A stretch of 64,000 nt of DNA from Phyllosticta citribraziliensis (lineage: Eukaryota), in NCBI RefSeq assembly GCF_038025025.1, contig NW_027117338.1:1302001-1366000 (forward strand). The letters are read 5' to 3'. Below the pieces are notes generated by a model. That model did no database searches. It had not been told where the DNA came from and saw nothing but the letters and a program-made list of their open reading frames with translations. Each line of letters opens with the position of its first letter. Position 1 is the first letter of the stretch. Of the stretch, positions 9,301 to 37,200 are shown in pieces. Both the position numbers and the translations under genes were made by a program.

Positions 9301-12300
9301 CTAGTACTAGTTGCCCTACTAATACACGGTCCTCTTCTTACTTAGTAATACTTAAGCATGTAAAATGTTTTTAGTAGTAATATTCTTATAGGCCTTCCTT
9401 TACTAGGAGGTGCTTAGGCGCGCCTTATTAGCTCCTTCTATAAGGTAGGTGCTAACTTAGTACTTTTCTCTAGTAGCTTAGGGTTTCTTCTCCTTATTCT
9501 TTATACCTAGTAGACGACCTTACTGCTTTAGTACTATAGGGATAACTATTTCTAGTAGTATATATAGCAGTTTATTATATAATGGCCTGCCCTATAGTAG
9601 TTTATTATATACCTTAATAGGTAGTAGCTTAACTATATTGTTATTTTCCTCTAGGTCCTTAGGTACTATAGTAGTATATTAAGGCGGTCCTAGTTTCTAT
9701 TAGGGCCTATACTAGTCTAGCTTTACTATTATCTCCTTATTTATCCTTATATTATATTCTCTAATAAGATCTATCGCCCCCTCTAAGTTATTTAAGTTGT
9801 ACTATACTTAATACTATAGCCCCTAGCCTTTCTAGTTAACTAAGTATTATAGTTTCCTAGTCCTATAATGTTTGCGTCTATCTACTAAGCGTAAGATTTT
9901 ATACTTAGGTGCTAGCTTATTAGTGTTAATAATAGGTCCTAGCTCTAATATAGTATTATACTTAAAAGGGTTAGGGCCGTCCTTTTCCTTTTTTAATTAG
10001 GAGATATTAATAACTAGATAAATCCTTAAACTACTAGGGATGGCTAGTTTATAGGCCTATATACTAACTACTTATATTACTTTATAAGGTCCTATATGCG
10101 TGTTCTAGAGTTTCTATAGTAGGTTACTATATACCTTATAACTATAGTATAACTATAGATACACCTTGTCCCCTAGTTTAAATTAGACTAGATAGTGCTT
10201 GCCGTTGTATTACTCCTTTTATACTACTACTATAAAAGTAAGGGCTTCTTAGGCTTTAGTATAGTAGTCTAAATAGAGGGTTTTTAAGTCTATATCCTTA
10301 GTAGATTCTATCTAGTTATACCCGTCATCCTATAGGTTAAATCTATATAAGATTTTATAGGGGGTACATCCTATTAAGGCATTTTAGGAAGAATTTATAG
10401 TCCCCTAGATATAAGAGAGAGCGTCTACCTAACTCTAATTAGGGTTAGCTATAATAAAGAAGTATAGAGCAATCTCTACTATCTAGTTAGTATACTTACT
10501 TTATCTATCTATCTAGGGATAGTAAGTAGTAGCAGTATTTAGATCGATTTTTATTATCTTAAAAACGCCACTTATAAATCGCCCTAGCTAATAGGAGTCC
10601 TAGTCTATAATTATAATAGAAGGTAGACCCTATCTATATCTATAGAGTTCTTTAAACTATAAACCTCCCTAATTACCTATAGTCTAGGTCTCTTAACTAG
10701 GAATTAGTAAGATTACTTTAGAAAATTTATAGATTATAGTTAGAAGTATGTTAAAACCCCCTTTACTATATATAGGCAGCTTAGTAATAAAATCAATATA
10801 TATAGTAAAGAAGGGGACCTTTACTACTATAATAGGGACTATTAACCTATTAGGTTTATATTAAGGTATTTAGTTAATATAACAGTTAGGATAGTAATTA
10901 ATATACACCTATACCTACTAGTATAGGTGCCTTATATAGTAGTAAGTATAAATATAATCCACGTATTAGTCTACGCCTTAATAGAAATGCTAATTATATG
11001 CTTATTTAAATACTACTTACTTATAGCTTTAGGAAATATATAGTCATTCTTACTAGTCTCCTAAGTGGTCTATAAAGTAGATCAGCCCTTTCTATAGGAA
11101 GAAGTATAAACTAGGGACTAGTCCTTTATAGGGGTCCTTATTTTCTTCTATATCCCTAAGGGGAATAGGCTCTATAGTAGTAATAGGGGCCGGCATTACT
11201 ATAGGTATAGGGTTTATACTAGTAGGTCGCTCTATAGTTATTATAGGGTTTACTAGCCTATAGTTATATTCCTACTGCTGCTTAAGGGCCCGCTTTAAAA
11301 TATAGAGTACCTTTACCTATTATATATTAGTACTATACACTATATAGAGCTCTTACTTAAATCTATTAGAGAGCTCTACTAATACTATATAGAAGTAAGT
11401 AGTAGCGTCGCTACCTTCTAAGGTATACTAAACTAGGTCCTCATTATTAGGGAATTCTATAGTATTAAGGGTGTTATCTATATCTATAGTTGCCTTAGAT
11501 AGTAATTAGCTTAGTATATTAGAGATAATATAGTTCCTCCCTAGCTAGTATTATACCTTTAATAGATACTAGCTTAGGTATTAGCTTATATATATTAGAT
11601 ATAGGTTTAGCTACTCTGTAGATTAGGAGTTTCTAAAGTATAGCTATTATATAATAGTAGTAACTACTAAATAGTTAGTAAATACCTAAGTATCCTTAGA
11701 GGCCTATATTAGTATTTATAATTTCTTAACCGCCTAAATAACTCCTATTATCTTAAGCTTAGTAGTCTAGTATCTCATCTCAGCTCCTAAAAGGTACTAG
11801 GATAGGAAGGCTATTAGCTTAATAGACTACTTTAAGAAGTCCTTAGCCTTCTTAAGCTAATTTATAGTAGGGTTTTTGCCCTCTATATTCTCTATATTTA
11901 TAGTAGGAGTCTAGTCTTCTATAACCAGTTTAGGATCGCCTTTTATATAGTAGGCTATTATACTAAAACCTAACTCTTTACTAGTATCCACATCGATAAA
12001 GAGGGGTCTCTCAGGCATATAGTAAAAACACTATTATATTTTATAAAGGGTCGTTTATATAGCCTTAAATAATACTACTAGTACTAGGGAGTCTAGTAGT
12101 ACCTATACTACTATATATTAGCAGCGCGCTTATTTATCTTTAGGAGCGCTTTATAATAGCACAGTCTTTATAGCTTCTAGTAGTTCTACTAGTTACGCGT
12201 AGTAGGGATAGTTATCCTGTAGCTAGCTAGTAAGCCCTATAAAGGTTTCTAGTTCTTAGAGGGTCCTTAGGAATTTAAGGTCTTTTAGAGCTTAGATCTT

Positions 12301-15300
12301 AGCTTCTAATATTATAATACTAAACCTAGATACCTACTATTCTAATAGTATAATAGATAGGTATCCTAACTAGGACTTCTTAGTGCTTAGGCTTATATTT
12401 ATACTATTAAGGATAGTAAATACCTTTTTAAGGTAATCTAGGTATTCTTCTAATATTTTAGAGAAAATAGTAATATTATTAATATATATTTATATAAAAG
12501 TATAGTAGTCCTAAAGAAGAGTGTCATACTGCTATTATATATACTATATAGAGTTATAGTATCCTATTAGGGCTATATTTAACTATTTAGCGCCCTAGTA
12601 GGTAAGTATAATTAGCTTATATTAGTTATTAGGATAGATCTGCTACTAATAGAAGAAAGAGATAGTATCTACTACTAAGATATAGAGATAGCCCTAGATA
12701 TTAGAGATAATATTAGTAGCTAGAGAGAGTAGCTATAAGTCCTTCTTACTAATAGTATTAAGGGCTTATATATCTATAACTACTTATCCTTTCTACTTTA
12801 GGGTCCTATTCTCTCTAGGGACCAGCTTCTATACTATAAATATAGAGAAGCTAAGATAAGTATCTCTATATACCTATTCTGCTTTTCCTTATTTATATAT
12901 AGGGTTAAGTATAGCATCTTAGAATTTATAGTCCCTTTAGGACGCGGGGTATAGTCTTTAATATTTAAAATATTTATACTAGCCTAGGACTAATAGTATC
13001 CTTATCTAATCCTTTTTAGAAACCTTAATAAATCCCTTTTAATTATAGAAAAGATCTTAAAACTAATCTACTAGTTTCTAGTATAGTAACTAGACCTTAG
13101 GGGTCCTAAATATAGCAATGCCGTTATTAAGCTTGGCCTCCTCTATAATAGGGATAGTAGGGTTTAAACTAGCTAGGCTATATTCTATATCTATAAGGCG
13201 GTACACCCTATTAAATTCTATAGTAATAATACTACCCAGCCGCGCATTCTAGGAGATTATAAGAGGCCAATCTAAGTTATTTCTAGTAATAATCTAGTTT
13301 ATATCTATACTAGTAACTATAGTATAAAGGGTACCCCCCTTTTATAGAAAGGGTATAAGATGCGCGGTTTTATTAGGATAGAACTTATATACTTAGTAAG
13401 GGAGGTCTAGTTCTAGGATTTTAACAAGTAGCTTTACCTAGAACTATAGGGGTATTATTATATTCCTTATAGTACGCATATATTAGTAGATAGGAGTAGA
13501 AAATAGCTTAGTTATTATACTAGTATTTAGTCCCTTAGGCCCTATATATAGCCATACTACTTAGTTCTAACTAATATTAATAATTACCCCTTTAGGATAT
13601 AGGAGGTTATTCCCTATAAGTAGGGGGATATTTAACTTATTAGTTACCTAAGTATAGTAGGAAAGAAAGCTAAGAGCCCATCCTACCTTAGTTTATCTAG
13701 GTAAGTAAAGGGGAAGTATTATATAGTTAGTATATTCTATCTTATATCTTACTCTAGTAATAATTATAGGTTTCTTAAGTATTATTACCCTAATATTAGG
13801 GAGCTTTTCCTTTAAAAATATTCTATTTACTATTAAGGATAAGGCACCTATATTAAGATACCTAATATCTACTATTCCTATAGGGGTCAGCCTAAAACTA
13901 ATCTCTATTAATTAATATTTAGAAAATAGAGGTAGATCGTCCCCTATACTAAGTCCTATAAAGGCTATAGATAACTCTAAGATTAGTACCTTTAGTTCTA
14001 TATTAGATATAGCCTTATCCTTTATCTTCCTATATTCGCTATTAACCATATTAAACCCTAATATAGTAAGGTAGACTATTTAGCAACGGCATCTCTAACT
14101 AAGTATAGGAGCACCTTGCCTATAGCGCTATATTACCTATACTATAAGGCTAAGAGGAAAGATCAACGCCTACTAGAGGGCTATAACTACTAGAGTAAGG
14201 ACATACTAAGAGGGGATAATATATTACTTAGTTCTATTATCCTAATAGCTTTTAGGTACTAGTTACCTACTAATTAGATAGTACTCTATTTAGATCCTAA
14301 ATTCTTAAGCAGCCTAATACTTACTTAGTTTAAACTATATTTAAAACCGTTATCCCTTAGGTACTAGTATAACTTATATTTAGAAGGGAAGCTTATCTAG
14401 TAGCCGTTATATACTTTCTAGAGATTAAGTACTATTATATTACTACTAGGAGTATAGTTAAAAGCATTATCCTAGGTAAGTATATATCTATACTAGGAGT
14501 AGTAGTTAGCTCCTATTATAATTATAGGCTTACTATTATTTAACTATAGCTTCTCCTTATTAGTTATAGGGGTCTCTATACTAGCATCTTTATTACTTTT
14601 AGTATCTTTACTTTTCTTATTACTATCCTTATACTCACTTTTAGAGCCATCCTAGGCATAGTATTACGTGCGTATAGTAGGTTTATAGTTATAGTTATAG
14701 TCGCGGTTATAATAATCCTTAGGCTTTAAGTAGGACCTAGAACTAGACCCTTTTAGGTTAGGAGTAGGGAGTGCACCCTACTTAGAATAGGTCACCTATT
14801 TTATATTACTTAGTCCCCTAGTACTTATATCGTACTAGGATGCCAAGCGCGCTCTATTAGATTAATTAAAAGGCTAGCTAGTAGTCTATATTAAAGCGCG
14901 TCCCTAATTCTAGCCCTTAGGGAAGAATGCCTTACTAGTAGTAGTTATATTAAAATATTAGGATAGGCGTTCTTAAGTCTACTAGTAACTCTTAATATTC
15001 TTAATAAATGCTTAGACCGTAGTGTTCGCTATAGGTTTAGGGATCTACTACTAGAAGTAAGAGTTAATATATATATAGGTATTAGCTAACTAATTATATA
15101 TAGTAGGGAAACCAGCAGCTTATCCTAGATATATATAGGTAATAATAAAGTCCCTTATACTTTTAATATAGACCTCTAGGAGCCTAAAGCATACTCTATT
15201 TAGCGCTTTAATAGCTTTATATCATGTTATACTAAAGTCTTTATATAGTAGTAAAGTCTAATTATTAATACTATATCTAGTATATATAAAAGCTTAGTCT

Positions 15301-17737
15301 TCCTCTATAAGTTAGGAGGCGTACTATATATTTAATAATCCTTTTAGGCACTTCTATAGGTTAGTATAGATTAGATCTGCTCTATAGGTAGTATAAGCTA
15401 TTAAGGCGCTATTAATAAACTGCTCTATAGTATAGTATAAGACCTTCCCTTATTTAGTTATACTACCTCTATAGCTAATATCTTCTTCTAATAGATTAGG
15501 GTTAAAGTAACTAATATTATCTAGGTAGAAATACTAGGTTATTCTTCTAGTATATAGTCCTAATACCTAGTTATACTCCTTATTATTACCTATACCCTAT
15601 AGGGGAATAAACTAAAAGGTAGTAGACTATTTATCCTCTTCCCTATCCCTAAAGGGAGGGGAGCTTAATAGGAGTAGCTCCTCTATCTTATACTAGATAT
15701 ACCTTTCCTAGTATCTCTATCTCTAGTTTTTACTAGAGAAATAGTTTCCCTCCTATAACTATAGTAGTCTTAGTACCACTTAGCCTCCGCCTCGGGGCGC
15801 GCTTATTTTAAGTATAGATAGGTATATACTAAGCTTCTTAAGTTACTTATTAACCCCCTTATTTATTATAGTAAGGTTTATTATCTATACTTTCTATTAT
15901 TTAGAGAATATATCTTAGAGCATATCTAGCTTTACTCCTAAAGATTCTAGGGTTATAGCAGGCTACTAGATCTCCTTAGTCTGGTCTATAGCACTATACT
16001 AGTCGCGTGTATGTAGCAGTGTTGTATTATATAGGGGCGGCTAGTTATAGTATATATACCTTAGGGGAGGATTCTAGTTTCCTAGTAGCTATTAGTAGGA
16101 GAAAGGAAGACCACTATATAGGTATTAGCTAAAACCTAGACCTGTACTACTCTAGAAAATATTAGGTAGTTAACTAAAGGGTTAGTAAGAGCAGCCTTAA
16201 GGAAGCCTATAGCTAGGTAGGAAGGGAGGTTATCTAAACTAGCCTTTATAAGTATAGCTGGTATCTTTACTAAAATTTAGTAGAATATGGCAGTTTTTAA
16301 AATTATTATCTATAGAAGAATAAGGACTCTATAGATTATATTCTAGTTTATTATCTATAGGTAGGCTGCTAGTATAGGTAACTAGCTACTTTCCTTTAGA
16401 AGGTTTTAGTTAGGAAGTATAAGGGGGCGTTACCTACTTATCTTAGAGCTAGTATAGCCTTATACTTATATATATCTATAACTAGAGTTATTAATAGGTG
16501 CGTATAGAAGTAGAGTAATATAAAGAAGATGAGCATCCTTAAGTTAGTATAGGTATTAGTAAAATAGGTCGTTAAGGCTCTATAGATAGTATAGGTTATA
16601 GATAAATTAATATGTAGTATAGAGATTTTAATTAAGGTCGTCTATAAAGTAAGGTAATAGGTGTTTATACCTAAGAAGAGGGTAGATCTACTAAGTAGAT
16701 AATTAGTCGGCCCTTTCCCTATCTAGGTATAGTATAGCCTCTAGTAGGAGGAGTAGGTCCTAATAGTTCCTAGGTTAACCCTAGTATAACTTCTAGGGTA
16801 ATTATAGCAGGTCCTAAAGGTAACTAGGGTGCTATCTTAGCTTATAGCTAGGGAGGCGCTTTAAGGACTATACCTAGAGCTAATACCTCTAGTATAGTAA
16901 GATGTCCTAGTATAGTTAGAGAAAGGTACTAGAATAGATTATATAGGGACTAGGACACTCTTAAGCCTATACTTATATTATATTAGCCTGGCTCCTTACG
17001 CGGCGTAGTTAGGACCGGGTTTAGTAGTAAACCTACTATATTAGTAGATATTAGTATGCTTAGTATTATAGTCCTTATACCCTTAGCTAGAGCCTCTTCT
17101 ATATGTTCCTATTCTATAACTACTAGGCAATTCTCTAGGAATAATTTAGTATAGGCGGTATTAACTCGTTTTAAGGCTTACTAGAAGGCAGCCTGGTTTA
17201 TACCTCCTATAGAATCCTAATATACTAGATAATCTAGGCACCTTTAAGATGCCTTAGCTTAATAAGTAGACACTCCTATACTACCTAGGGGCTTAAATAT
17301 TTCTATAAGAAGGTTAATATAAGTCCTTACTACTAGGGTAATCTATTTAAGCCGTTACTTATATTTGCTATAATAAAGGAAGGCCTTAAGCTACTAGGTA
17401 GATAGTATATCCTCTTCTAAAACTAATATAGTAAACTTATTATTTAGGGACCATATTATAGACGGTTCCTTATACTAGTACTAAGTATTAAAGGGAGGAG
17501 TAAGCGTAGTAGAAGTAAGGGTCCTACTATAATAATACTAGTACTAGGTTATATAAGAAGGGAGATCCTTACTAGGCGCTATATAGAAGTGTATTATTAG
17601 CTGTTTTAAGGAGATTTTCCTAGGTTTTAGTAGAAGTAGACTTATAGTATTTATATATTAGTAGTAATAAAGGTCCTAGACGTAGGGGGGACGCTATAGT
17701 AAAAGGAAGTACTATAGTACTTTTAGCTACTAAATAA

Positions 17738-17910
17738 TATTATAAGTTTAGTTAGGATGTCTTTTTTTAAGTAAGGATTATATTATTATTATCTCTATCT
17801 TAGCCCTAGGGCCCTACTTATTCTTATCTGCTTACTTATACTACTAAGCCTACTAGCTAGTACCTGCCTTGCTTATCTAAGGCGTCCCTAACTATCTGCG
17901 GACTATAATA
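17738..17910 (-). repeat. gypsy 5' LTR (173 bp)
   Basis: Direct repeat of 6129-6301, followed by TSD GTACG. Confidence 0.95.
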
Positions 17911-19181
17911 GTACGCGATTATAGAATTATTCTATGCCCTAGTAATAATAGTACTCTTAGCTTATAAATCTATATAGATGCTGCTTTTACTAATAATCTA
18001 GATACTTATTAGTCCTTATTAGGCTATATTGTTATGGCTTTAGGTAGTTTACTATATATAAAGAGTAGGAGATAGAAGCTTATTAGTATATCTATAATAG
18101 AAGCTAAGTTTATTAACCTTACTCCTACTATTAAATAAGCTATCTAGATGACTTAAGTTCTTACTAAAATAGGTTATAAGGGCTCTAATACTTAACTAAT
18201 CTAGCTCTATAATAATAATAAGAACGCCGTCTAATTTGCTAATAGTATAGAGTTTAATACTACTATAAAACACATTAATCTATACTACTAGTATATTAAG
18301 TAGGTAGTTATAGATAGAACTATAACCGTCTCTTATATCTCTACTAATAAGATAATTATGGATGGGCTTACTAAAGTATTAGTAATAGTTAAGCACCGCT
18401 GCTTTTATGACCTTATTAGGTATAGACTAATATAGTAAGTTTTCTATTTAGTTAATATGACTACTTATATATCTACTCTACTATGACTGTCTCTTTTCTC
18501 GTCCTAGGGGGTGTGTTGGTGGTCCTATATAACAATACTAAGCAGTCTCCTGTCGCGTCGTCTTAGCTGCAGTTTGCCTGGATGACTGTAGCTTGTCCGG
18601 ATGATGACTTGCTGCTTCAGTTAAGATGCGCTTGTCTGTCGGCTTTACACATCTTAATAAGTTTAGGACTCGTCGGCAGTTGGCACCAGCTACTGCTCCC
18701 CCTAGTAGTTTCAGCAGTATATAGATAGCTCTTAGAGTAGCCTTAAATGGAGTCTTCAGTTCTCTCATCTTACTTCGTCAGTTGTGGGTAGTATAAGATG
18801 CAAGCCGCGTGCATTGTACTTGACTGATGCAGACCAGGTTCTTTGTTACGTACTAAAGCATTTGCTTGGATCGCCGTGTGAAGCTAAGGCGTGTTAAAGT
18901 CTGGCCAAGTCATGCACGCATTTTTTGGAGCGTGGCCGCTCTTCGTGTGAAAGAGCGGCTTGATGGTCCCTTAAAGGGAAGCCAGCTTGATGGAAACATG
19001 GCGAATCACGCCTGGAAAGGCGTGTAAGAGGCATTTAAAGGGTGTGGGATGCACTCTAACCAAGGCCTTCCTATCGCCCTTCCGTACGCTCTTCCATCCC
19101 CTATTCTCTGCCATTTTCTCCTGTCTGGGTGCCTTTTCCCTCTTTAACCTACCCAATCATTGAATACGCCAGATCAACAAC

Positions 19182-19769
19182 ATGCCTGGTCGTCCATGGC
19201 CTATCGAGGATAAGAATCGGGTATGCCAAATGCGTTTGTGCCGTGACTCTGAAACTGGCTGACAAATGTGCCAGCTCTTACTAGGTATTGTCAAAGTCAC
19301 GAAATTCAAGTTGAGTGACGGATACTGTAAGAAACTCGAAAAATTCATGGGCAATAGTAAGTACTGTCCTTCCTTGGACTTGACGACTTTTCTGACAATC
19401 TGCATAGGATATACTCCCAACGCAATTTACAAACAGCTGGCAAAGATACTCTCGGATGCCGAAAAGTCTGGATTGCTTTGCGAAGAAGATGGCGATCGGA
19501 TGCTAGTTAGCCCGAAGAGGAAAGCATCGCCCCGAAGGGTGAAGACTAAGAAAATCAAGGTGGAAAAGTCAAGTGATAATGAGTCCTTGGATTCGCCTCC
19601 TATTGGCGATAGCACGATGCCTGATGCTTCGCCGCCGCGTCGTCTGCCGGAGCGGGCCAAGCGGGCCTCTATTTCCTACAGAGAACTTGCAGGTGACACC
19701 GAGGGCTCCTCGGACACCGACTCTGTCAAGCTTCGGTCGAATGTGTTAGAGGATTGCGACGAAGTGTAG
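19182..19769 (+). CDS. Small Myb/SANT-like domain protein, paralog A (~160 aa)
   Basis: Exons 19182-19220, 19275-19356, 19408-19769; introns GTATGC..CTGAC..CAG and GTAAGT..CTGAC..TAG. Product MPGRPWPIEDKNRLLLGIVKVTKFKLSDGYCKKLEKFMGNRYTPNAIYKQLAKIL... plus basic tail (SPKRKASPRR, IKVE). Confidence 0.8.
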
Positions 19770-20495
19770 ATCTTGATATTGTCTTCAAATCAAGTCGCTA
19801 CTTTCGAACAAGAAGTCTGAAAGATGCTCCATGAGCTGTGGCGCTTGGGTGGACGAATGCTCCTGGTCTGTAGGTGACCGCTCGGTTGAATGCTTCTTGT
19901 CTGAAGAGGAGTACGTGTTCCCTTCCGAAAATTACGGTCTGGACTATTCAAATGAATGTGGTTAGGTTGTTCCCAGCTTGTAACCTGACACCAAATTGAA
20001 ATGTTTGCAAGCTGCCACTTGTGTACATGTGATGATCCCAAGATCCCAAGGCCGGAGCTGACCAAGATGAAAAGGCTTCTCGGAGACGGAATGTTCCAAC
20101 AAGGTCTGCAAAAAGTTGACCATGGTTGAGATTTGCTCCATAAAGTTCGAGTTCGGTTCGAATGCCACCTGGATGATTCTTCTACCCATCCTGGTCCTGG
20201 ATTAAGTGAGTGACGGCAAAGAATACCTTCACTGCACCTGATTCATGGACGTATAGTGATAGTTCACTGCAGCCGGAGCCATGTCAGGGCGGCTTGATGC
20301 GAAAGAGAACGACTCAATGGTGGCCTGTTAGAATGTCAACTTCGTAGGGCGGTGGTGATAAGGTTCCAACGCTCTCCGTGGCCATTTAACACACGTGTCC
20401 CTTTGAGCGTGGCTCTGCTCCTGACAGTTCCAATCCTCTAGTCGTCAGCGAACATCCTCAAAACAGTCTCCAAAACTGTACCAGTGTACTCCACC

Positions 20496-21092
20496 ATGCC
20501 GAGCTGGCGCGCCCAGGATAAAGCGGAGCTTCTCCAGCACACCGTTGACCTGGCCCGAGTCACAATGACAAAGGGGTTTTACCATGAGATTTCGAAAAGA
20601 ATGGGAGGTCGTAAGTGAAGCCCCTGATTGCAGCTGCAGTACTACCGTTGAGAATGTTGCTCTGATACTTGCAAAGGATTCTCACCGGAAGGAATCCGGC
20701 AGCAATTCATCAAAATGCACAAAGAGTACAAAGGTGGATCTTTGAAAACCGAAGAACGCGTCAATCCACCGAAGTCATCGCCGGCAAAGGGGACGTCTCC
20801 CGTCCGGGGAGGAGGAAAAAGAAAAAGAGATGCGTCGAATCTGACGCCGTCTCCAAGCCCCACTGGAGAGAAGATGAAGACACTGATCAGGTCTCTCCCT
20901 CCGCGAAAGTGTCCTAGGAAGTCGTACATCGAGTCGGACATCGACGGGTCCGTCACAGAAAGCGACACGGGTAAGAAGCCTTCCAAGTCCAAGTCAAAGG
21001 CGAGGATGAATGGCTTCAGTGCCGACATGCTGGACAAGATCAAGTATGAGGACGAGGAAATGGAATTTGAAATTGACGGCGTTCCCTCCTAA
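20496..21092 (+). CDS. Small Myb/SANT-like domain protein, paralog B (~176 aa)
   Basis: Good start context CCACCATG; exons 20496-20610, 20677-21092; intron GTAAGT..CTGAT..AAG joins in frame to ORF 20715-21092. Product MPSWRAQDKAELLQHTVDLARVTMTKGFYHEISKRMGGRFSPEGIRQQFIKMHK... Confidence 0.8.
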
Positions 21093-22214
21093 GCCAGACA
21101 GACCGTGCAGACTGTCAACCCACGACACGGAAATCCATGTCGCTCGCTCGCTGAGAGGGATGGCGTTGGCGTTTTGATTGCTTGCTGCTTTTGAAGTAAT
21201 AATGCCGCCCAAATTGTGTGGCAATTGATGGTAGCTTGGAGGTGATGGATGGTCTTTCCCCTTTGCCTTGGCGGTTCAAACCAGAAATCGAGAAGTCGTT
21301 GCTTTGCGACCTGGCTCTATTGCGCCCGTGACGTCCGATGCTTCCCATTCTGGCGAGGCAAAGCACATCGAGATCCCGGAGTCGTAGAATCTGCTCGTCG
21401 GAAGTGATGCTAGCGAGTCCATACCAAATCTGCTCCCGTGTGTCACCAGTGTCCTCTCTTTAGCAACCTTACTCATAGTCTGACCTACCTGAGTAAATGC
21501 TGGCATTCCAGGGATAGGAGGTTGGGGTCGAAGATATTGAAACACTTCGACCTTAGCTCCGGGCCAGGTGGGCTTGGAACCAAGTACGAATGTGGAAAGG
21601 TGAAAGTTTATGCATGTGCGGGTCGGCCGGAATTGTTACTTGGCATACCATGCCACTCCAACACCATAGAGCTTACATGTGCTCAGGTATTGCTAGCTTG
21701 GGCTATGGTAAGTTTGAAGTTAGGAAGCCTCCTTTGCCGCGGAGACTGACACTTACATTGGTTGGAAGCGCGGGGGAACCAAATCTGATGTTATTTCTAC
21801 AAACCTTCGACTGTAGGAACGTCGGAGACCAACGCCAGCGACAATCTAGAACCAAGCCGGGCATATTTTGGGTAAGCAGGAACAGCTTCCGGTTGTGTTT
21901 GGGCACCGCAGATAGAGCTCCGGGCTCTGTGAGAGGCAGAACGAGCAAGAAACGGACTAGGGCCGAAGTAAAGGTTCGATGTCTGTTCGTTCAAACGTGT
22001 CTGAGTTGTCTGGACTGCGTCAACCCGACGCAATCCCAAATGGACCATGACTGGTGAGCTGCTGTGGAGGGCGGAGTGGGCGCATTAGCTCCCAATATTT
22101 ATTGGTGTTTGGTCCTCTTGGAGAAAAGTCTGCCCTTCTTGACATCCGACCGTTCGACACCGCATACGCTGTTCCGTAAAGTATCCTCGCAGGTTTAGAC
22201 TTGAAGCTGTCAAA

Positions 22215-22869
22215 ATGCCTAGAGGCTCCACTTGGACAATTGAAGACGACTTCCTTGTATGCTCTTGTCCAGCTGTTGATCTCCAGAAGCAGAAACTGAT
22301 CGAGGCTGCAGCTGCTTCTCGAAGTCATGGGGATATCCGGAGTGAAAGCTGGCAAAGCCATATTTACAGAAGTCTCAAAGCGCCTGCCTGGACAAAGTGA
22401 GTCAATCTCGACAGTTCTTTCTTTCCCCGAACTCAACCCCGGGAGAAGTGTCCGGGACTATGAAGACCTCACGCCAGACTCTAATTTCTGTGCAGGGACC
22501 CCGAAGGCCGTCGACCATCGATGGCAGTACTTGAACTCAAAGTACAAGAACGGAAAATTGACCAACAAGTCGGCGAGCAGCCCCCCAAGTGTCACAACGA
22601 CGCCGAAGACTCTGAAGAGATCTTCTCCGCTTAAGGGGAAGGGGAAAAAAGTCGCCTTTTCTCAGAGCACCACTCCGGGATCATCTCCCGCTCCGAGTGA
22701 CGATGGGTTGGCCATTGAAGGGACTTCACTGTCCCCTCAGCGTTCTTCCACAAGGAAGGCGGCAAGGAAGAATTATGCCGAATTCGACATGTGCGAGTCC
22801 GATGAGAATGATGATGACGGCACAGGAGAGACTGTGTTTGAGGATGTTGAGATCAAGACTGAGGTGTAG
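22215..22869 (+). CDS. Small Myb/SANT-like domain protein, paralog C (~166 aa)
   Basis: Exons 22215-22256, 22312-22396, 22496-22869; introns GTATGC..CTGAT..CAG and GTGAGT..CTAAT..CAG. Product MPRGSTWTIEDDFLLLLEVMGISGVKAGKAIFTEVSKRLPGQRTPKAVDHRWQYL... fits the Myb repeat pattern WT.EED..L...LPGRT......RW..L. Confidence 0.85.
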
Positions 22870-25653
22870 AGTGACGAGCGTGTGTACGTGTCTTTTCCGG
22901 CACGACGCTTGAATGCTCCTGAACCCCTGGCCAAAAATAGCCTGGGGTTGACTTGAATGCTTCCCGTCTCTTTTCCGGCGTTTCTGGCTTTCCATCCTTC
23001 CCCTCTTTCTGTGTCTAGGGCCGGGAACAAAGCTGTGTGCGGCTTGCCCTCCTTCTCGTGGCGATGAGGCTGGCAGTGTATTCCCCACCCTTCCCCATTT
23101 TCTCTGGTCTTCAATCTTTGACCGAGCCTCTTTTGTCGACTCTCCTTTGTGGTCTGGAGTTTTCCCTTCGCAGCCTCACCCGAAGCACACCATTTTCAAT
23201 GGCCCAGTTGCAGTCGTGTGCGACACGAATGCTTGCTCCTGGCTCGCTCACTCTCTTGCCTTTTCAGACCCGGAAGCGTTATGGCGTACTGGCTTCAGTT
23301 GGGAACCAAGTTGTCTATGGTAGCGATATGTTGTTTCTTTTTCTCCTACTTGTCTTGTGGCGTGTCGGTTCCGCTTGAGCGTCCAAATTGTCCGTAGTGG
23401 AAACCAGATTGTTTGCCCGCGACCCTGCTGTCTGTTTCATTTCCTGATTGATTCTCCTCGACGCTCCCTCGCCCTTCCGTGATCGTTTCTGGAGACGCCG
23501 GCGGCGTGCGGATCTTGGCCTCAGAAAGCCAAATTGGCCGCAGGCTTGCACCAAATGGACGTCGTCATGATCTCGATGGATTGCGGTGATTGTGATTGTG
23601 ATTGTGAATGAGACGCGTTCTGAGTCAAGTCGTGCTTTCTTCTCTGTAGTCCTACCGTAGTACGCATCGCGATGTTATCAGTTGTTGCACATCTTTTGTG
23701 CAGTCGTGGTCGGTCAAAGCTAATTTGAAAGTTTGACCCCTGCCGCTGGGTCCATCTGACTCGTGAAAAAGAAATATCGCCGCTTGCACCTGGGTTGTAA
23801 GGACGACCAGGTGGTGAAAAGCTTGTGACTAATACAGTCTTGCAAGGTAGGATGGATGGAAATGTTTCCGCGAAAAGCCGCGGCTAGGAGCGAGTCAGTA
23901 GGTATATAGATGACAATTAGAACATATTTTCCCCTCCGTTCCTTCCTTCTTCCTCTCCCATCTCTGAATTTCATTGTACAATCATAGCTCACCTTTAGAA
24001 ATATTTCTGTGGTGATCCTAAGTCATCTTTACCATATGATACCAGAATCCTGAAGGCGCTTCCGGGTGTGAAGTGGACTATGCTGCTAAGGTGGTATTTT
24101 GAATCCCCTGATTACCCCTGGAAGACTGAACGCACAGTGCTTTCGCAGTGGCTCTTCCAAACAGGTGAAACGCACACCATTTTCGACTTGAGCGGAGGTG
24201 TTGCCTGAGAATCTACTGTGGGTGTGATAAGTAGCTATCTTCAATTTCAGCCGAAGTCTTAACAGTCTCGAATCCTGCTGTAGAGGTCAACGATCCCGTC
24301 GCGAGAATGCATGTAAGTCTGGAACTGCATCGTCGACAAGGGGCGCGAACGGGGTGTTTATAAGCAGGTGGAGCCGGATTCGATGAGTCTGGGCAGAAAA
24401 CGAGGTTCAGATGCCTAGGGCGTCCTCTTTCCACGAGTCTTTCCTTGATGGTCAGTTCCAAGTGCCGACGCATTGCTATGGGTCGATGGAATGGGTGGTG
24501 AGACCCTTGGAGTCTCCTCCCAGCCAACAGCGTTCTGCGAGCGCAGGCATATTAGCAATTCTCGGATTGGATTTGAGAAGAGCACGTTCGACACGCGCAC
24601 TATTGCCTCAGACTCACGACAGAATCAAAGGGTGACCCAGACGCTCCAACCCTACGTTCTCTCGCTGGCAAGCACACGTAGTCCCAGCCGCCGTCCTGTT
24701 CGGGCATTGGGAATGGTGGACCCGCCAGCAACGCAGTCAGACTTGTGCGGTTGTTCTGCATTTCCGCGTCTGACGGGTCCCAACTCGAGGCCGCGCTGCG
24801 CGAACATTTGACATGGCGGGTCCACTCTTGTCTGCTGGAGCACTCCTGCCAGCTGTGATTTTTCTCACCTTGGCAGGAAATTGGATGCCGCTCATGTGGG
24901 AACGGGACTGTACAGCGGCGAGGACGAGGTATCTGCGCCATCGCGGACTTCATGTTGGATGCGAAAAGGCTTTCGGGCTCCCGTGAGCTCTTTCATCTTG
25001 TTTGAGGTTGTCTTGCCCACCGCGCCCAAGTTCAGACGGCCGGACTGCCGCTTCCTCGTATCCTTCTCGCGTTTATAATTAGCATATTGATGTGTTAAAA
25101 AGAGATCATGTCCCTAACTTGAAAGGATTGTACCAATGTTCACGGGATGTTCTGAAGAGGCTATTGCTGTGGTTAAGCAGCAGTCAGGGAGCTGACAGGT
25201 CAAGGGTCGTCAAGACATTAGCATACTTTTGGCGGACTCCTTGCAAGAATGTGTGACGTAACTGGGTAGTGCCGGTCTGGTAGCCGTGTGGGTATCGAGT
25301 AGGTATCGAGCGGCAGGCCGCCTCCCATTCGCCTGGATTTTTCCTGCACAGGGTGGTAGTGTTGTGCTTGTAGGTGATTGCTCGGGAGGTAGGTTCAACG
25401 GGTCAGGCCTTGCCTGCAATGCTCAGCAGCGCCGAGCACAGGGCGGGTGCTGCCAGCTGTGACGCCGAGCTGGGCGTGGGCTATAACTTGGTGGTCACCT
25501 CGTTACCTCCACCTCCCCTCACAACCTCTACCCCGTTACCTTTCTGCCCCATCAACCATTCCACCTCCACCTCGCACCCGTCTGCCAAATTCCTCGAGCC
25601 AAAGCTCTGCTCTTCGACAAGTTCTCAAACTTCCACGCGCTCCAACCGCCAGA

Positions 25654-26313
25654 ATGAAGCTGTATGTCAAAGCCCATCGTTTTGCCCTTCACTGAGCTTA
25701 CCTCCTGCGCAGCTGGTCACCTGAAGACGAGGCTCGCGTATTTGCGTGCGTCCTTGCTCTCAAGGACATCAAGCTGTCGAAGGATGATTGCAACGAAATT
25801 TCCAAGATGATGAACGGAGGTAAGTCGCTTACCCTCAGCTTGACTTGTGCCTACACCCGAGCCTTCTCTTCGACTTTCTCACCTTTGCGCCTCTACCGGA
25901 TGCGCTCGTCTCTCTGAGTCTCTAAAGAATGCTGATTTCCTACCCCAGACTTCTCCGGTGAGGCGATCCGTCAGCGCATCACGAAGAAGATCAAGAAGTC
26001 GTTCGAGGGCGCCAGTCCCAAGAAGGAGCTTCAGGTCGAGGTCAGTCTGGACTCTTCCCGTCCACCACACAATTTGGCTAATTTGACGGGGAACCAGACG
26101 GCCAGCCCTGGCAAGAAGTCCAAAGGCGCCGATCTGAAGAAGACGAAGACTGTTGGTGCCAAGAAGCGCGGCGCCAGTGCCTTGAAGAACGACGCCGGCG
26201 ACGACGAGGTTGATGAGGAGGCGGATCTTCCATCCAAGAAGGTCAAGACCGAGCCGAAGATCAAGGAGGACATCGTTGACTTCAACGGTTTCTTTGACCC
26301 TTACGCCAACTAG
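25654..26313 (+). CDS. Small Myb/SANT-like domain protein, paralog D (~140 aa)
   Basis: Exons 25654-25661, 25713-25819, 25949-26040, 26098-26313 with GTATGT/GTAAGT/GTCAGT donors and CAG acceptors (intron 3 is in frame and could be retained). Product MKLWSPEDEARVFACVLALKDIKLSKDDCNEISKMMNGDFSGEAIRQRITKKIKK...SPKK...VKTEPKIKED; strong C/G-ending codon bias. Confidence 0.85.
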
Positions 26314-28449
26314 GCGGCTCTCTCGCCCTCAGCATCCCTGCGGCTTCTTTTTTCTTCTCTGGCTGCCCATCATCTTCGCCATTGGCATGTCACCTTTTGG
26401 TTTCTTCTTCCTGGACAAACGACAAGCGCGATGGAGCAAGGAAAGTTGGCGAGTGGATAGCAGAAAACGGCCTGGGGATACGATGGTGTCTGTCTTTCGG
26501 CGGAAGTGTCCTGCCCTTCCCTTTCATATTCGAGGATTGCCACAATCACATTGGCAGTCTAGAAGTCGGTGGTAATTCTTGGTCGAAGGAAACCAAATTG
26601 CATGGAATAATCAGGTCTCTTGTGACGTGCCTGTGTCAAGCTGGTATTGTGGCGGATGCGTGTTGTTTGCGAAAGACTGTCTCAAGTCTTTGTCGACTAG
26701 CTCTTGCTCATTCTGTTCATTCTGGTGTTGCTGACACAATGTTCCAGTACCATCACCAAGTGGTGAGCTGCTGAGTGTCGAAAGAAATGATCCTCCCTGG
26801 GCAACGTGTCTGCGGTTGTGAACGACTGCTCCCAGAGCGCTGCCTGGCAGAGAACGACGAGAAACCTGCTGCAATCGAGCTGCCGAGATTCGCGATCGCC
26901 ACGGAAGCGGTAGATGAAGAGTTGGAGTTGGGGTGACGTGATTAGGTGCTCTAGCTAGACTACCTATGTACGGCATGTACGCGACGTGATGTGGCTCACG
27001 CGTCCATTCTAGACATGGTCCAGCGTGGTTCCTAAATCTGGAAGCTTAAGCGAAGGCCTGACGTCATTGTCCAAACAGACGGACGGGGCCAAAGAAGGCA
27101 GCAATCTAGGAGACATCCAACCACGGCACCCGTTGATGGCCAAATGGAATCCGGCTGATCTGTCTCTGCTCGCGAATACGACTTGTGGGATTGACCAGGG
27201 ATACAACGGTTTCCATGGGGAGAATGTCTGGCTTGGGTTCGGGTAGCAGAGGAGCAAGCCCCTGATCGCGATTGCAAGGACCGGGCTACGGTGATGCAGT
27301 GGAGTTCAAGGCGAACGAGGTGCGGATGATTGTACCGGCACCGACAAGCGTTCAGCCTCAGATGAAACTCCTGAATGAGGCACGTGTCCGGAATGAAACA
27401 AGGGAGCAAGTGGTAAATACATGGCGGATGTCTACGACAGCTATTTGGCGATGGCACAATGGACTGTAGAGTAGATATCTCCTCTCCGTCGTCTCCAGCA
27501 AAAGGCTCGGCGGGTCTGGGGAGCTGCCCGATGCGCAACCCTGTTTTGGTGCCCCAGACGTGATGTCAGCCGCGGGTTGGGGTTCAGGGACATGGCCCTG
27601 ATGGCGTAACCAGACCCTGTGACACCCAGACAGCAGACATGCGGTGGAAGAGTGGCGGTACTTGTGCGATGAGAGCGCTGAGACAAATGGCACGAATGAG
27701 AATCACGAAAAGATGTTGGGCATGGCCAACAGGTGGCAGCCCAGCGGGAGGGAAGCGGGAGGCGGCATCCAGATCCGGCTCCGGATCCTCCTTGGTGTTT
27801 GGCAGGGGTAGGTGGAGGGCGAGCATGGATGGGGCTGTAGGGCTGCTGAGGTGTTGGTGCGATGGATGTCCAGTTGATGATGTACGAGGTGGAGCACCAC
27901 GTCGAAGGCACGTCATGTGTCTGTGGCGGCCGTTGAGGATGGAAACCTCACGGAGCCTGGAGCCGGATGGCCATTGTCGTTGGGTATTGCCGTTGCCATC
28001 AATTGCCATCGAGCGCACCGTCATCGCTGGTTAGCCCGTTTGGTAGGTCAAATTAAATTGCCTTGGCGACCGGACACGCCCGCGCTCCTGTGTTTGGACT
28101 AAGCTACCCTAACGTTCCAAACTTGGGCAGCTCCGAAATCAACCCTCATCACGGCCATTTCGCTCTGCCATTGTTCATGGCCCTCTAGACGACGACCGCA
28201 ATCGACGCTGCAATTGTAAGTGCCACCTCTCAGTCCACGCTGCCCGCCTGAAACGCGAGTTTCAACTTTCAGCGGCGCACGAGCGCACTGCCCACGCAGC
28301 ATCATTAGGGCACCTCCCGCCTCCAGCCCGCCGCGCCGCCTTCGACATCCTACTCACCACCTCACCCCTCTGCCCGCGAGGCATGCCCGCTTGATTTCCT
28401 CATCCCTACGCTATCCCTTTCCAGCCTCGTTTGACTGACCATCTCAGCC

Positions 28450-32104: not shown

Positions 32105-33775
32105 TCAAACGACGGTCAAAGTGCTGACGGCGTCGTTCTTCAAGACCTCGAAAATGAGGCCCGGGAAGCCGTAAATTTCGCTGATGCCAAACGAGTTGTC
32201 CATGGCGGCGCTGGCCGCATCGGAGACGCCGACGCCTCCTGCGCCGACGCCACCCTTTTTGCTGCGCGACTGCACCGGCGATGCCGTCGCCTCCTCGAAG
32301 CCGCCGAGGAGCTCGCAGCTGCTGCCGGGGCTGTCGCCCCACCCCCGATTCAGCACCATGCCGCGCTGCATGGAGCGCTCTTCCTCGTCTGTGTTGCAGT
32401 ATGATTTGAAGGCCTCGAGGAGGCGGCCCTTGCAGTCGGCAAACGGCATTTCGGATGTCAACGGCTCCTTGTACAGTTCTGTAGGTACGTGTTCGAGGAC
32501 CCAGCGCGACCGTCGGTGTCTGTTGAAAGGGTAGGATCCGGGCACGTTGCCGTGGAAGATGACTTTCGTGGCTACTAGGTTATTTTCAGAGGGCGGCCAG
32601 TCTGCGGGGACATCGCGCGTTGGGTGGGTAGAGGTTGGCGAGGGCGCGGAGATGGCTGTGGGAGTGGAGATGAGGATGTCGAAGCCATGGTTGAAGTAGT
32701 TGTAAAAGTGCTCTGGTGACGCGTCGTTGGCGTCGAGGTATGTCTTGGAATTATCGTCTTCGGAGCCTTCTGACTCCTCGCGCTCGGAGCCAGTGTACGA
32801 CATGTTCTCTTCGTTTTCTGACGACTCTCCGTCAGCGTAGGGGATCGAGGCCTGACTGCTGGCGAGTCCGTTGAGACTTTGTCTCTTCCCGTGGATAGCT
32901 AGGCGGTTGTCATTCTTGCGGTATATGGCGTCTGGGGGCCCTAGTTCAGTTACAAGTTCTTGTGGAGTCGTCTCGCTGAGGTTGATCCAAAAGGGCGGGC
33001 TTGAGCGCCTTATGAGCTCGATCCTGCCCTCACCGTAGATCTTGACCAACTCAACCTCGTCCGCAACATTCGCCTTGCTTGCCAACTCCAGAGATCTTGG
33101 ATTTACAGGCGCCTGGGTGAATAAAGCTCCGCGAGCTTTCGGCCAGGACTCGCCGTGAAAGATGGCCATTGAGGTGGCAGGCGCAGTCGCGTGCGATGAG
33201 AGCAAAGACACAAAATCCTTGTCGGGAGACCACTCTGAGGCTTGCAAAGGAAAGTTGAAGGCAATCCCAGGGTATGACAAAACATAGGTTCCGACCCCAT
33301 TTGCCTGATCTTCAGCCGGCGGTATGTACTCGCCCGCGTATGTTGGTCCAAGAAGCCGGTCGTAGACGTGGCGGAACCTAGGACCAGTGGGACCTGCGCG
33401 CACCCCCAGAGTTCCTCCCAACTCTCCAATCTTCACAACCTCGATGTTCTTGTAGCTTAGCCGGGTCTTGCTAAAGTCGGTCACTTCGATCAAACGCAGG
33501 CGCTGGTCCGGGCCGTCGAAGCGGAGGCGGAGGCCATTTTCGGGCAAGGACAGGACCACGGGAATCTTGACAGGGTATTTCGGGTCAAATGTAAGCTGCA
33601 TCTTGGGGTAGAGAGACGGCTGGGCTTTGACGCGGGTCAAGATGTCGTGAAGGGAGGCTCCGAGGACTACCACATGTCAGCCGCAGTCGCACAAAGCGAG
33701 GAAGACGGTACACAGACCCATAAAGCCCAAGGAGCGTCCGGGGAGGATGGCAGTTGATGGTGGCGGGCTGGTCAT
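32105..33775 (-). CDS. UPF0183 / PHAF1 (C16orf70-like) family protein
   Basis: Exon 1 33775-33718 (MTSPPPSTAILPGRSLGFM), intron 33717-33667, exon 2 to 32105; motifs GLRLRFDGPDQRLRLIEV, FYNYFNHGFDIL, HGNVPGSYPFN. Confidence 0.85.
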
Positions 33776-34256: not shown

Positions 34257-37200
34257 ATGGCAGGTCCTCCAAGACCTGGCCTGCCCGCGAGCAGAATTGG
34301 CTCAATGCGCCCGCCCCAGAACCGCCCTGTCGACCTTCGCCGTCGCGCTGCCACTCCGGTCCTTAACAGTGGCCGCGTTTCGCCCGCAGAGTCCGTCGCA
34401 TCCGTCGCGACCTCTGCCACCAACCGATCTCCCGTGTCGCGCAAGCGCAAAGAACGAGAATTCGAATCAAGCTCCGACACCAACATCAATGTCGTCGTCC
34501 GCTGTAGGGGCCGCAACGATAGGGAAGTCCGCGAAAACAGCGGCGTTGTCGTGTCCACCAATGGCGCCAAGGGCAACAGCGTCGAACTGTCCATGGGACC
34601 CAACGCTCTCAGCAACAAGACATACTCTTTCGACAAGGTCTTTTCGCCGGCCGCGGACCAGGTAATGGTCTTTGACGAAGTCGTTGCGCCTATCTTGAAT
34701 GACGTACGTGGACAGCCAAAAGACGTCTTCGACCACAAACTGACGACAACAGGTTCTCGACGGCTTCAACTGCACGATTTTCGCCTACGGACAGACTGGA
34801 ACCGGAAAGACGTATACAATGTCAGGAGATATTACCGATATGCTACCGCTCCCGGACGCCGCCGGTATCGTCCCTCGCGTTCTGCACGCATTGTTCGACA
34901 AGCTCGAGAGCAACGACCACGAAAACTCGGTCAAGTGCTCATTCATCGAATTGTACAACGAGGAACTCCGCGACCTCCTTGCCGCCGATGACAACGTCAA
35001 ATTGAAGCTGTACGAGGACAACAGCAAAAAGGGCCACTCGTCAACCATCGTCCAAGGAATGGAGGAGTCGCACATCAATAATGCCACCAAGGGAATCCAA
35101 CTGCTGCGAAATGGCAGCCACAAGCGCCAAGTAGCGGCCACCAAGTGCAACGATCTCAGCTCCCGTAGTCATACGGTCTTTACCATTACCGTATACATGA
35201 AGCGCACTTCGGACACGGGCGAGGATTTCGTAAGCGCTGGAAAATTGAACCTTGTCGACTTGGCGGGCAGCGAAAACATTCAGCGCAGTGGAGCAGAAAA
35301 CAAGCGCGCCGCTGAAGCTGGCCTGATCAACAAGTCTCTGCTGACTTTGGGCCGTGTCATCAACGCGCTGGTGGAGAAGAGCTCACACATTCCTTACCGC
35401 GAGTCGAAATTGACCAGGCTACTGCAAGATTCATTAGGAGGGCGTACAAAGACCTGCATCATCGCTACGCTCTCTCCGGCAAAGAGCAATCTCGAGGAGA
35501 CCATCTCTACGTTGGATTATGCCTTCCGCGCCAAGAACATCCGGAATAAGCCCCAGACGAATCAAATGGTCTCGAAAAAGACTTTGTTTAAAGAATTTAC
35601 GTCGGAAATCGAGAGACTCAAAATGGAGCTGATTGCGACGCGGCAGAGGAATGGTGTGTATCTCGCCCAGGAGCAATATGAGGAAATGACCACCGAGAGC
35701 GAGTCTCGAAGAATTTTGGCCGAGGAGCAAAAGGACAAAATTGAGACCATGGAGAACAACTTGCGCAACAAGGTCCAGGAGCTGTTCAACTTGACGACAT
35801 CCATGAGCACTCTGAAGAAGGACCACGAGGCCGCAAAGACTGCGCTGGAAGGAACCCAGAGCATCCTTGAGAAAACTGAGGTCGTTTTGGAGCACACACG
35901 GAATACACTCGCGGAGGAGACCGAGTTCCGAAAAGCCCACGCTAAAACGGAGGAGCAGCTTGCCAACATTGGGAGGGATCTCATTTCGACTTTGGGCTCA
36001 ACCACATCCGACATTGGCGGACTGCGTTCTAAGCTGCGCAGAAGGTCAGACCTCCACTCGACGAATCGCAGGCAGTGGGGCTCCACTCAGCAACAGGTAT
36101 CTGGTACGACGCGCCTGGTTGAAGACCGCATCTCCGATTTTCAAGACCAGCAACAGGACCTCATGGCTGTGCTTACACGCAGGATGAAGAGCTTTGTGGA
36201 GGACGAGCTGCAGAACCTTGGTTCTTCTCAGACTCTGCTCCAGGAAAAGATGCAGGCTTTCGAGGAGTCGAGGAAAGAGGTCAACGATCAAACGGCAACT
36301 TCGCGGGACGACATGAACGAGGTACTGGAAGAAATCAAAGGCCTGAGAGAAGACGTCAAGTCAAAGGTTGGCTCGAGTCTGAACGATCTGTCCGCTGCTG
36401 CGGAGCGCATCTCTGCCGGAATTGTGACAGAACTTGAAGGCTTCCATACCCAGCTGCACGCGTCGTATGCGTCGCTGGGGCGTGACTTCAAGACTACGTT
36501 TGACGACCTCATCAAGCAGCTCAACGAGCAGCAGGGTGAGGTCGATTCTCTGAGAAAGCAAATCTCTGAAGCCAACCTCGAGGTCTTGAGGGCCAACCGC
36601 GCGACGCAGTCCAGCTTGGTCAGTGTGATTGAAGAGGAAAAGCTAAAGGCGGCTGCTGAGAAGGAGGCACTACTGGCCCAGATGACTGCGCTCATCAATA
36701 ACAACTCTACATCGCAAGAGCAGCGCATTGCGGAGCGCATTGCAAGCGTTTCCCAGAGCATTGACTCTGCCAACACTGGCTTAGAGACCGCAAACCAGTC
36801 CTACGGCGAGGGCATGGACGCTTGGTCTGGCAAGGCCTCCGAACTGATCAGTGGAGTTGTCAAGTCTCGCGAAAATGTCAAGACCAAGATCAAGGCCGAC
36901 TTTGCTGCTGCCAATGAACATACCGACTCTCTCCGCCAGACGACTGCCTCTGTGCACGAGTCCACAGTCAAGATTGTCGACGATCAAATGGCCAACATGG
37001 ACAGCCAACTCCATTCGTTTGACGAGATTGTTGACCGTCTTCGTGCCCGTAACGAAGCACACCACACCAGCCACACCGAATCTCTGTCCGCGCTCGCAAC
37101 AACTGTCCAGACCTCGTACTCCAGCATCGGAGACCACTTCAACACTTCCTTCTCGCGCGTTCAAGACCTTGGAACTGACATGGAAGCCAAGACTGCCATC

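Follow-up and report, generated by a model that had tools for sequence, protein, structure and literature searches.

Four linked genes of Phyllosticta citribraziliensis as probable members of a widespread family of very small, Myb-like ascomycete proteins

The Myb repeat is defined by three regularly spaced Trp or other aromatic core residues. Small proteins with a single such repeat act in plants as adaptors or competitive inhibitors, and Myb/SANT-like proteins are also borne by transposons, of which Harbinger-type elements are an example. Two short motifs that will be of importance below are S/T-P-x-K, a site of the cyclin-dependent kinase/mitogen-activated protein kinase type or of the SPKK type, and psi-K-x-E, the consensus for small ubiquitin-like modifier (SUMO) attachment. 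Here we describe four co-oriented small genes, hereafter A, B, C and D, at positions 19182-26313 of a 64,000-nucleotide stretch of P. citribraziliensis DNA (contig NW_027117338.1, positions 1,302,001 to 1,366,000; hereafter the window). An earlier reading of the bare sequence, the first-pass annotation, had taken them for a hidden, locally expanded array of Myb/SANT proteins. On balance we favor the reading that A to D are strongly diverged, old paralogs of a widespread ascomycete family of small Myb-like proteins, which would have a role on DNA or chromatin in the nucleus.

The gene models were obtained by locating the splice borders, joining the exons by coordinates and translating the products. 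They are as follows, with intron positions counted in codons from the first Trp (W) of the protein.

19182-19769, plus strand: gene A, exons 19182-19220, 19275-19356 and 19408-19769; 160 amino acids (aa) once spliced.
19221-19274, plus strand: intron 1 of A, phase 0, after W+7.
19357-19407, plus strand: intron 2 of A, phase 1, codon W+35.
20496-21092, plus strand: gene B, exons 20496-20610 and 20677-21092; 176 aa.
20611-20676, plus strand: the single intron of B, phase 1, codon W+35.
22215-22869, plus strand: gene C, exons 22215-22256, 22312-22396 and 22496-22869; 166 aa.
22257-22311, plus strand: intron 1 of C, phase 0, after W+7.
22397-22495, plus strand: intron 2 of C, phase 1, codon W+36.
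25654-26313, plus strand: gene D, exons 25654-25661, 25713-25819, 25949-26040 and 26098-26313; 140 aa.
25662-25712, plus strand: intron 1 of D, phase 2.
25820-25948, plus strand: intron 2 of D, phase 1, codon W+35.
26041-26097, plus strand: intron 3 of D, phase 0.

The four ATG codons (19182, 20496, 22215 and 25654) and the eight introns were all located where the first-pass annotation had placed them, with one small correction. The donor GTCGTA at 20608 of B was dropped, since GTAAGT at 20611, 3 nt downstream, is the better site and is used by the annotated B protein P0001. The choice of the 20611 donor gives B one additional Arg, and the B orthologs P0002 and P0003 have the same residues as B at the junction. 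All eight introns have GT..AG ends and lengths of 51-129 nt, and all four reading frames are intact. The phase-1 intron of A, B and D at W+35 and of C at W+36, which sits just before helix 3 of the domain described below, was verified on these models, as was the phase-0 intron common to A and C and found in those two copies only. Two of the introns of D are private to it.

The spliced products are clearly similar to one another. The blastp E-values were 1.2e-9 for the pair A/B, 5.9e-7 for A/C, 3.9e-6 for A/D, 2.8e-15 for B/C, 5.1e-12 for B/D and 1.0e-4 for C/D, at an identity of about 27-31% over the aligned stretches. The A/D and C/D alignments extend over no more than the N-terminal domain, which is about 55 aa long and is interrupted by introns in the genes. 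Aligned from the Trp, the four proteins run without gaps for at least 42 residues with exactly the residue pattern that had been described for them, and the helix-3 strings read NAIYKQL, EGIRQQF, KAVDHRW and EAIRQRI in A, B, C and D, as had been quoted. Comparison of small ortholog sets by hhalign gave a probability of 96% for B/C (E of 2.3e-9 over 130 columns, an alignment that takes in a second common tail motif of the type R-K-x-x-R-K-x-Y-x-E), 89% for A/D (E of 2.7e-6), 23% for A/C (E of 9e-4) and 12% for D/C (E of 2.3e-3). B is the hub that connects the other copies. Judged from these alignments, the similarity exceeds chance and the four are paralogs. A six-frame hidden Markov model scan of all 64 kb found only the four known loci at E<1; the profile includes A to D themselves, so that this result speaks only to the lack of further copies in the 64 kb.

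The identity of the domain was clearest for C. Residues 7-66 of C matched PF13921 (Myb_DNA-bind_6) at 24.3 bits, above the curated cutoff of 22.9 (E of 3.7e-5), which bears out the earlier assignment of this copy to the Myb/SANT repeat; PF00249 scored 18.1 bits (E of 0.0029), below its cutoff of 24.4. Of the three classical Myb positions, Trp 1 is present in all four copies, and the domain begins near the initiator Met (M-P-x-x-W). Its net charge is +7 in A, +6 in B, +4 in C and +2 in D. The closest Atlas clusters are ascomycete clusters of the 'Myb-like' type. The domain is, as far as sequence can tell, a divergent Myb/SANT-like single repeat. Where C and the whole family are concerned, this assignment is secure; in the case of A, B and D it follows from homology to C, established by blastp and hhalign, and not from their own Pfam scores. 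Pfam searches with six fragments, either single exons or open reading frames (ORFs) that read through introns, found no family, since the domain is too split by the introns.

Several other assignments were considered. PF22980 (Myb_DNA-bind_8) gave no match at E<=10 in seven Phyllosticta proteins, A to D and three orthologs (P0001-P0005, P0007 and P0008), and Pfam AT_hook gave none in A to D. The UniRef name of the B ortholog P0003, Clr5, was not reproduced, as no Clr5 row appeared at E<=10 for P0001-P0003. The UniRef name 'H15 domain-containing' on the ortholog P0005 was likewise rejected: there was no Pfam row for the H15 linker histone at E<=10 in P0004 and P0005, and the model of A contains no strands. 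A search of PDB sequences with a 7-sequence profile gave no match at E<=10. A further PDB profile search gave nine rows at E<=10, among which the only rows aligned to the domain were MYB3 (3zqc, E of 0.47) and two sequence rows for the SANT region of CHD1 (E of 1.3 and 1.4), all non-significant.

Structure prediction with AlphaFold2 was run on A and B with 107-sequence alignments. The model of A showed helices at residues 8-22, 28-37 and 44-61, with mean pLDDT (the per-residue confidence score) of 87-96 in 10-residue blocks over residues 11-60. In the model of B the helices were at residues 6-20, 26-35 and 42-57, with block means of 86-97 over residues 1-50. Both models agree with the three-helix bundle of the Myb/SANT-like repeat, in which helix 3 is packed on helices 1 and 2. 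The tails past about residue 60 had block means of 48-68. The layout of A is given below as an example.

Residues about 6-61 of A: Myb-like three-helix domain.
Following residues of A: basic tail with S/TPxK motifs.
End of A: acidic.

The expectation of a three-helix helix-turn-helix fold was thus borne out for A and B as far as the three confidently predicted helices go; no structure search singled out Myb/SANT. The structure searches, described below with the points that weigh on the assignment, could place the fold no further than 'three-helix bundle'.

A to D are not an isolated group. A profile of seven Phyllosticta sequences was searched against 1.84 billion representatives and detected 129 representative proteins at E<=1e-3, 12 of them at E<=1e-10. 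The members are mostly 105-230 aa long, and most of the 129 are matched from residue 1. Pfam searches on 105 members (E<=0.01) found PF00249 in 11, PF22980 in five, PF13921 in four and PF13837 in three; only Myb-type families recur, and all others appeared once each. The names of the 30 representatives that were looked up are mostly 'hypothetical' or 'uncharacterized'. Members of Macrophomina, Botryosphaeria and Talaromyces carry the name 'Myb-like domain-containing protein', members of Diplodia seriata and Paecilomyces variotii the name 'AT hook motif protein', and one member the name 'ctr9', which is evidently mis-transferred. The looked-up representatives with a named organism are from ascomycetes save one, the plant protein P0017 of Drosera rotundifolia; from the organism names, we take the hosts to span Dothideomycetes, Eurotiomycetes, Leotiomycetes and lichen-associated lineages. 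Some long proteins matched in five to seven stretches, namely a 539-aa protein of Phlyctema and a 509-aa protein of Coleophoma (P0028 and P0044, Leotiomycetes) and the 1182-aa plant protein P0017. These are either domain arrays within one protein or fused gene models.

The tails of the family share motifs as well. S/T-P-x-K/R-type motifs were found in the tails of 91 of 104 members, against a mean of 32.8 in shuffled tails (standard deviation 4.5, maximum 45), and psi-K-x-[ED] in the last 40 residues of 85 of 104 (shuffle mean 21.1, standard deviation 3.7, maximum 32). The S/TPxK-type motifs are present in A, B, C and D alike. The psi-K-x-[ED] motif is in the last 40 residues of B, C and D, and in A it is internal only, at residue 90. 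The middle of the tail has a net charge of +5 in A, +11 in B, +11 in C and +2 in D, whereas over the final 30 residues it is -6 in A, -6 in B and -12 in C, all acidic, and near neutral in D (-1). The four proteins therefore fit the architecture of the family, that is, an N-terminal domain in a protein of about 105-230 aa, a disordered S/TPxK tail and, save in A, psi-K-x-E/D near the end. Among the papers listed by the literature searches, none on this family was recognised from title and opening of the abstract, and none was found on PF22980 (Myb_DNA-bind_8). On the basis of the literature searches and the database names, the family is uncharacterised. The description of a locally expanded family thus holds in that four linked paralogs are present; it does not hold as a local oddity, since the family has 129 representatives.

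The genes are not hidden, contrary to the first-pass annotation: searches with the large exons recovered NCBI proteins of P. citribraziliensis that have identical splice structures. P0004 corresponds to A with four mismatches in 160 residues, P0001 to B with one in 176, and P0007 is identical to C over 166 of 166 residues. P0008 corresponds to residues 1-110 of the 140 residues of D with no mismatch and is labelled partial. All are named 'hypothetical' or 'uncharacterized'. The frame of D stays open past residue 110 up to 140 aa (26098-26313), and the end resembles the P. citriasiana ortholog P0010. The further suspicion that the genes had been missed or fragmented by annotation is therefore supported only by the truncated D (P0008, 110 aa), and not by A, B and C.

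Transcript evidence came from a sequencing run, X1, in which 41% of the words sampled from the region are present. None of the listed runs is on record as RNA, and the type of X1 is a guess; X1 was taken as cDNA-like because its contigs carry exon-exon joints. The X1 contigs skip exactly intron 1 and intron 2 of A and intron 2 and intron 3 of D, each with GT..AG ends, and four of the eight predicted junctions are thus supported. The remaining four have no X1 joint. At the intron of B and intron 1 of D the X1 depth is almost nil, and a part of B has no X1 depth at all. A second run, X2, is unspliced DNA of a relative with a likeness of 90-95%, and covers B, D and exon 3 of A.

Some side observations on splicing and transcription were made at the locus. 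Intron 2 of A (19357-19407), intron 2 of C (22397-22495, 99 nt) and intron 3 of D (26041-26097) have lengths divisible by three and contain no in-frame stop. Their retention would lengthen the proteins, in C by 33 residues placed between helices 2 and 3; a database ORF call, P0006 (180 aa), runs through intron 2 of C. X1 contigs also skip about 20421-20481 and about 21693-21756 with CT..AC ends, which correspond to minus-strand GT..AG introns. These joints place spliced transcripts of the antisense direction in the A/B and B/C spacers. The minus-strand intron between A and B ends 15 nt upstream of the ATG of B. No convincing ORF was found in these minus-strand transcripts, and the ORFs tried had no Pfam match. 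Much of the 2.8-kb spacer between C and D is covered by X1 contigs (22838-24864) and is thus transcribed; the ORFs tried there had no Pfam match.

Linked copies are not restricted to P. citribraziliensis. The P. capitalensis protein P0134 (356 aa) is a head-to-tail fusion of the B-like P0133 and most of P0009, and the P. capitalensis accessions KAK8253108, KAK8253111 and KAK8253112 are three members within five numbers. Co-oriented neighbours thus occur in that species too. In Macrophomina phaseolina, MPH_07345 and MPH_07346 are members at consecutive locus tags in two assemblies, and the consecutive JGI protein ids of the B- and C-type proteins of P. citricarpa are a weak indication of the same kind. 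At least four further species of Phyllosticta retain orthologs. The age claimed for the family is accordingly upheld, and the linkage is conserved, with adjacent or near-adjacent copies in P. capitalensis and M. phaseolina. In the approximately unbiased (AU) test, one clade of all 13 Phyllosticta rows stays unrejected (p-AU of 0.78), and the tree constrained to a Phyllosticta clade surpassed the quick free tree by 26.7 log-likelihood units. The simplest account, and probably the correct one, is that the copies were duplicated locally in an ancestor within Botryosphaeriales.

A motif of the type GAATGCTYC was found downstream of two of the copies.

19855-19899, plus strand: two GAATGCTYC-type motifs, 33 nt apart, about 90-120 nt past the stop codon of A.
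22911-22966, plus strand: two GAATGCTYC-type motifs, 44 nt apart, about 40-90 nt past the stop codon of C.

The pair is lacking after the stop codons of B and D. The window contains nine matches where 2.0 would be expected, and all of 100 shuffles gave fewer than nine. The motif may be an element of the 3' untranslated region or a trace of an A/C duplication. Together with the common phase-0 intron, it hints that A and C are the closer pair.

The surroundings of the locus are of two kinds. Positions 1-18000 form an AT-rich block with a GC content of 0.31, and past about 18 kb the DNA becomes gene-dense, at a GC content of 0.50-0.56; the block ends about 1 kb upstream of gene A. It has a TpA/ApT ratio of 1.87 and a (CpA+TpG)/(ApC+GpT) ratio of 0.22, and contains no ORF of at least 130 codons. 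By the dinucleotide thresholds in use for repeat-induced point mutation (RIP), the 18-kb block bears the signature of a RIP-degraded repeat. The flanking genes downstream are of housekeeping type.

32108-33676, minus strand: PHAF1 (E of 1e-49).
34744-37956, plus strand: kinesin motor (E of 4e-98).
41892-42980, plus strand: class II DAHP synthase (E of 7e-151).

A number of observations weigh against the reading of A to D as Myb-like proteins of a DNA-binding or chromatin type, and they are considered here together. The Pfam evidence is one of them: A matched no family at E<=10, B matched only GeBP-like_DBD at a sub-threshold E of 0.1, and the best match of D, also to GeBP-like_DBD, scored 17.3 bits (E of 0.008), well short of the cutoff of 29.5. 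The domain also departs from the three-Trp definition of the Myb repeat. The second Trp position is replaced by I, L or V in all four copies, and the third is W only in C, being L in A, F in B and I in D; both are thus gone in A, B and D. Foldseek searches of the PDB with the models of A and B gave nothing at E<=0.001, and the weak rows include the DNA-binding domains of ARR1 and GT-1. With VIA-align the best Z was 3.9; homeodomains appeared at Z of 3.0-3.5 (rmsd of 2.2-3.2 over 45-48 residues) mixed with many unrelated helical proteins, and the 50 rows listed per model included no Myb/SANT chain.

Two further points of this kind concern C and the tree. For the introns of C no X1 joint was listed, though the summed X1 depth over C is about 11-12, and the RNA thus does not confirm the splicing of C; the X1 contigs may run through the intron. 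The model of C is otherwise backed by its identity with the annotated P0007, by the ortholog P0011, which keeps the junction residues, and by the Pfam Myb match, which spans both junctions. The free tree of the domain (109 rows and 76 columns) is mostly unresolved, with seven of 105 inner branches starred, and sets C apart from A, B and D at 91% in the approximate likelihood-ratio test (SH-aLRT), without a star.

The conservation of the domain itself bears on what it may do. The identity between orthologs in domain and tail is 85 vs 90% for A (P. citrichinensis), 75 vs 83% for B in P. citrichinensis and 53 vs 54% in P. citricarpa, and 49 vs 48% for C (P. citricarpa). Only in D, with 75-80% in the domain vs 38-59% in the tail, is the domain better kept. 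A domain conserved no better than the tail, as is the case in A to C, is unusual for a sequence-specific DNA reader, and counts against such a role. The diversified specificity that had been read into the differing helices 3 is for this reason left as a conjecture.

There is another possible interpretation of these facts, to which we assign a minor but real likelihood. The domain could be a SANT-like protein-binding module, and A to D could serve as adaptors or competitive inhibitors bound to histone tails or to regulators of larger size, in which case the charged tail would carry the regulation. In favor of this, helix 3 of the A to C orthologs shows no higher conservation than the remaining sequence, Trp 1 alone is retained, the CHD1 SANT region is one of only two weak PDB domain matches, and each protein has a single repeat in place of the full R2R3 pair of DNA-binding Mybs. 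Other features speak the other way: the domains of A to D are net basic (+2 to +7), histone-binding SANT domains being acidic, the tails have SPKK-like basic motifs, and some members bear the name 'AT hook motif protein'. 

The low identity of some orthologs (53-54% in B and 48-49% in C of P. citricarpa), equal in domain and tail, could also mean that the genes are duplicates which drift fast and now do little or nothing, being transcribed and spliced yet weakly constrained, and that they persist next to a repeat-degraded block largely by chance. The low paralog identity and the position next to the 18-kb RIP-like block would fit, but four intact frames with canonical introns, orthologs in the other Phyllosticta species, framework residues and tail motifs kept across 104-105 family members, and coding regions free of RIP-like bias (TpA/ApT of 0.39-0.70) make it improbable. 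Least probable of all, and hardly to be expected, is that the domain is left over from a Myb/SANT-like protein carried by a transposon and the array a result of mobile-element activity by the degraded block, which the sub-threshold GeBP-like_DBD and Myb_DNA-bind_4 matches (both of the Myb/SANT-like group) and the adjoining AT-rich block might suggest, but there are no transposase or terminal repeats near A to D (only two short direct-repeat families in 18800-26800), the intergenic ORFs tested had no Pfam match, and the family consists of stable small proteins with a conserved architecture in many fungi.

On the reading that we prefer, A to D would reside in the nucleus, bound to DNA or chromatin. 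Their helical domain, which is net basic, would make a contact through helix 3, and the SPKK-like basic tail would contribute DNA affinity without specificity as well as nuclear import. The proteins would be regulated by phosphorylation of the S/TP sites and by SUMOylation of the psi-K-x-E motif near the C-terminus. The copies would have arisen by the ancestral local duplication proposed above and then drifted along their whole length. Binding to chromatin or DNA and a specificity diversified in helix 3 are both inferences. A more specific proposal, which we regard as rather unlikely, is that the family is a mainly ascomycete class of minimal chromatin proteins, each composed of a single degenerate Myb-like bundle, an H1-like S/TPKK tail and a conserved SUMO-consensus site at the C-terminus, and that the four linked, fast-diverging copies beside the 18-kb RIP-degraded block are specialised readers or boundary factors, each for different AT-rich or repeat sequences.

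The present analysis corrects the view of the locus: the four genes were not overlooked but are already annotated, and the fungal family of very small Myb-like proteins to which they belong is large and uncharacterised. What is new lies at the level of the family, namely the common architecture of a three-helix domain, an S/TPxK basic tail and psi-K-x-E/D, and the recurrence of adjacent copies in Botryosphaeriales. If one member were characterised, it would provide a functional lead for many ascomycete 'hypothetical proteins'. The result has no bearing on any long-standing open question.

Finally, A to D may be compared with the known systems that they resemble. Linker-histone and HMG-like proteins have S/TPKK tails, and the basic tails of A to D are likewise rich in S/T-P-x-K/R; they differ from linker histone in that P0004 and P0005 gave no Pfam match to it at E<=10 and the predicted fold of A has three helices and no wing strands. 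Homeodomains such as Meis2 (3k2a) and Ubx/Exd (4cyc) superpose on the models of A and B with Z of 3.4-3.5 and rmsd of 2.2-2.8 over 45-48 residues, among the lowest rmsd values of the low-Z rows, scores that are within noise for small helical domains, and have neither sequence similarity to A to D nor a Pfam homeodomain match in them. With the single-repeat Myb/SANT domains (PF13921, PF00249 and PF22980) they share a three-helix domain of about 50-55 aa, a W-x3-(D/E) start and a helix 3 of the type T/S-P-x-A-(I/V)-x-x-R, and C is above the PF13921 cutoff. In contrast to these, A to D conserve Trp 1 only, A, B and D are below every cutoff, and the proteins are very small, with the domain right at the N-terminus and the remainder predicted to be disordered. 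The closest counterparts are the ascomycete 'Myb-like' and 'AT hook motif' proteins (MPH_07346, KAF4308273 of Botryosphaeria dothidea, and those of Paecilomyces variotii and Diplodia seriata), which belong to the same family and have the same size, architecture and tail motifs. P. citribraziliensis differs from them in the number of linked copies, four being seen here and two adjacent ones in Macrophomina.

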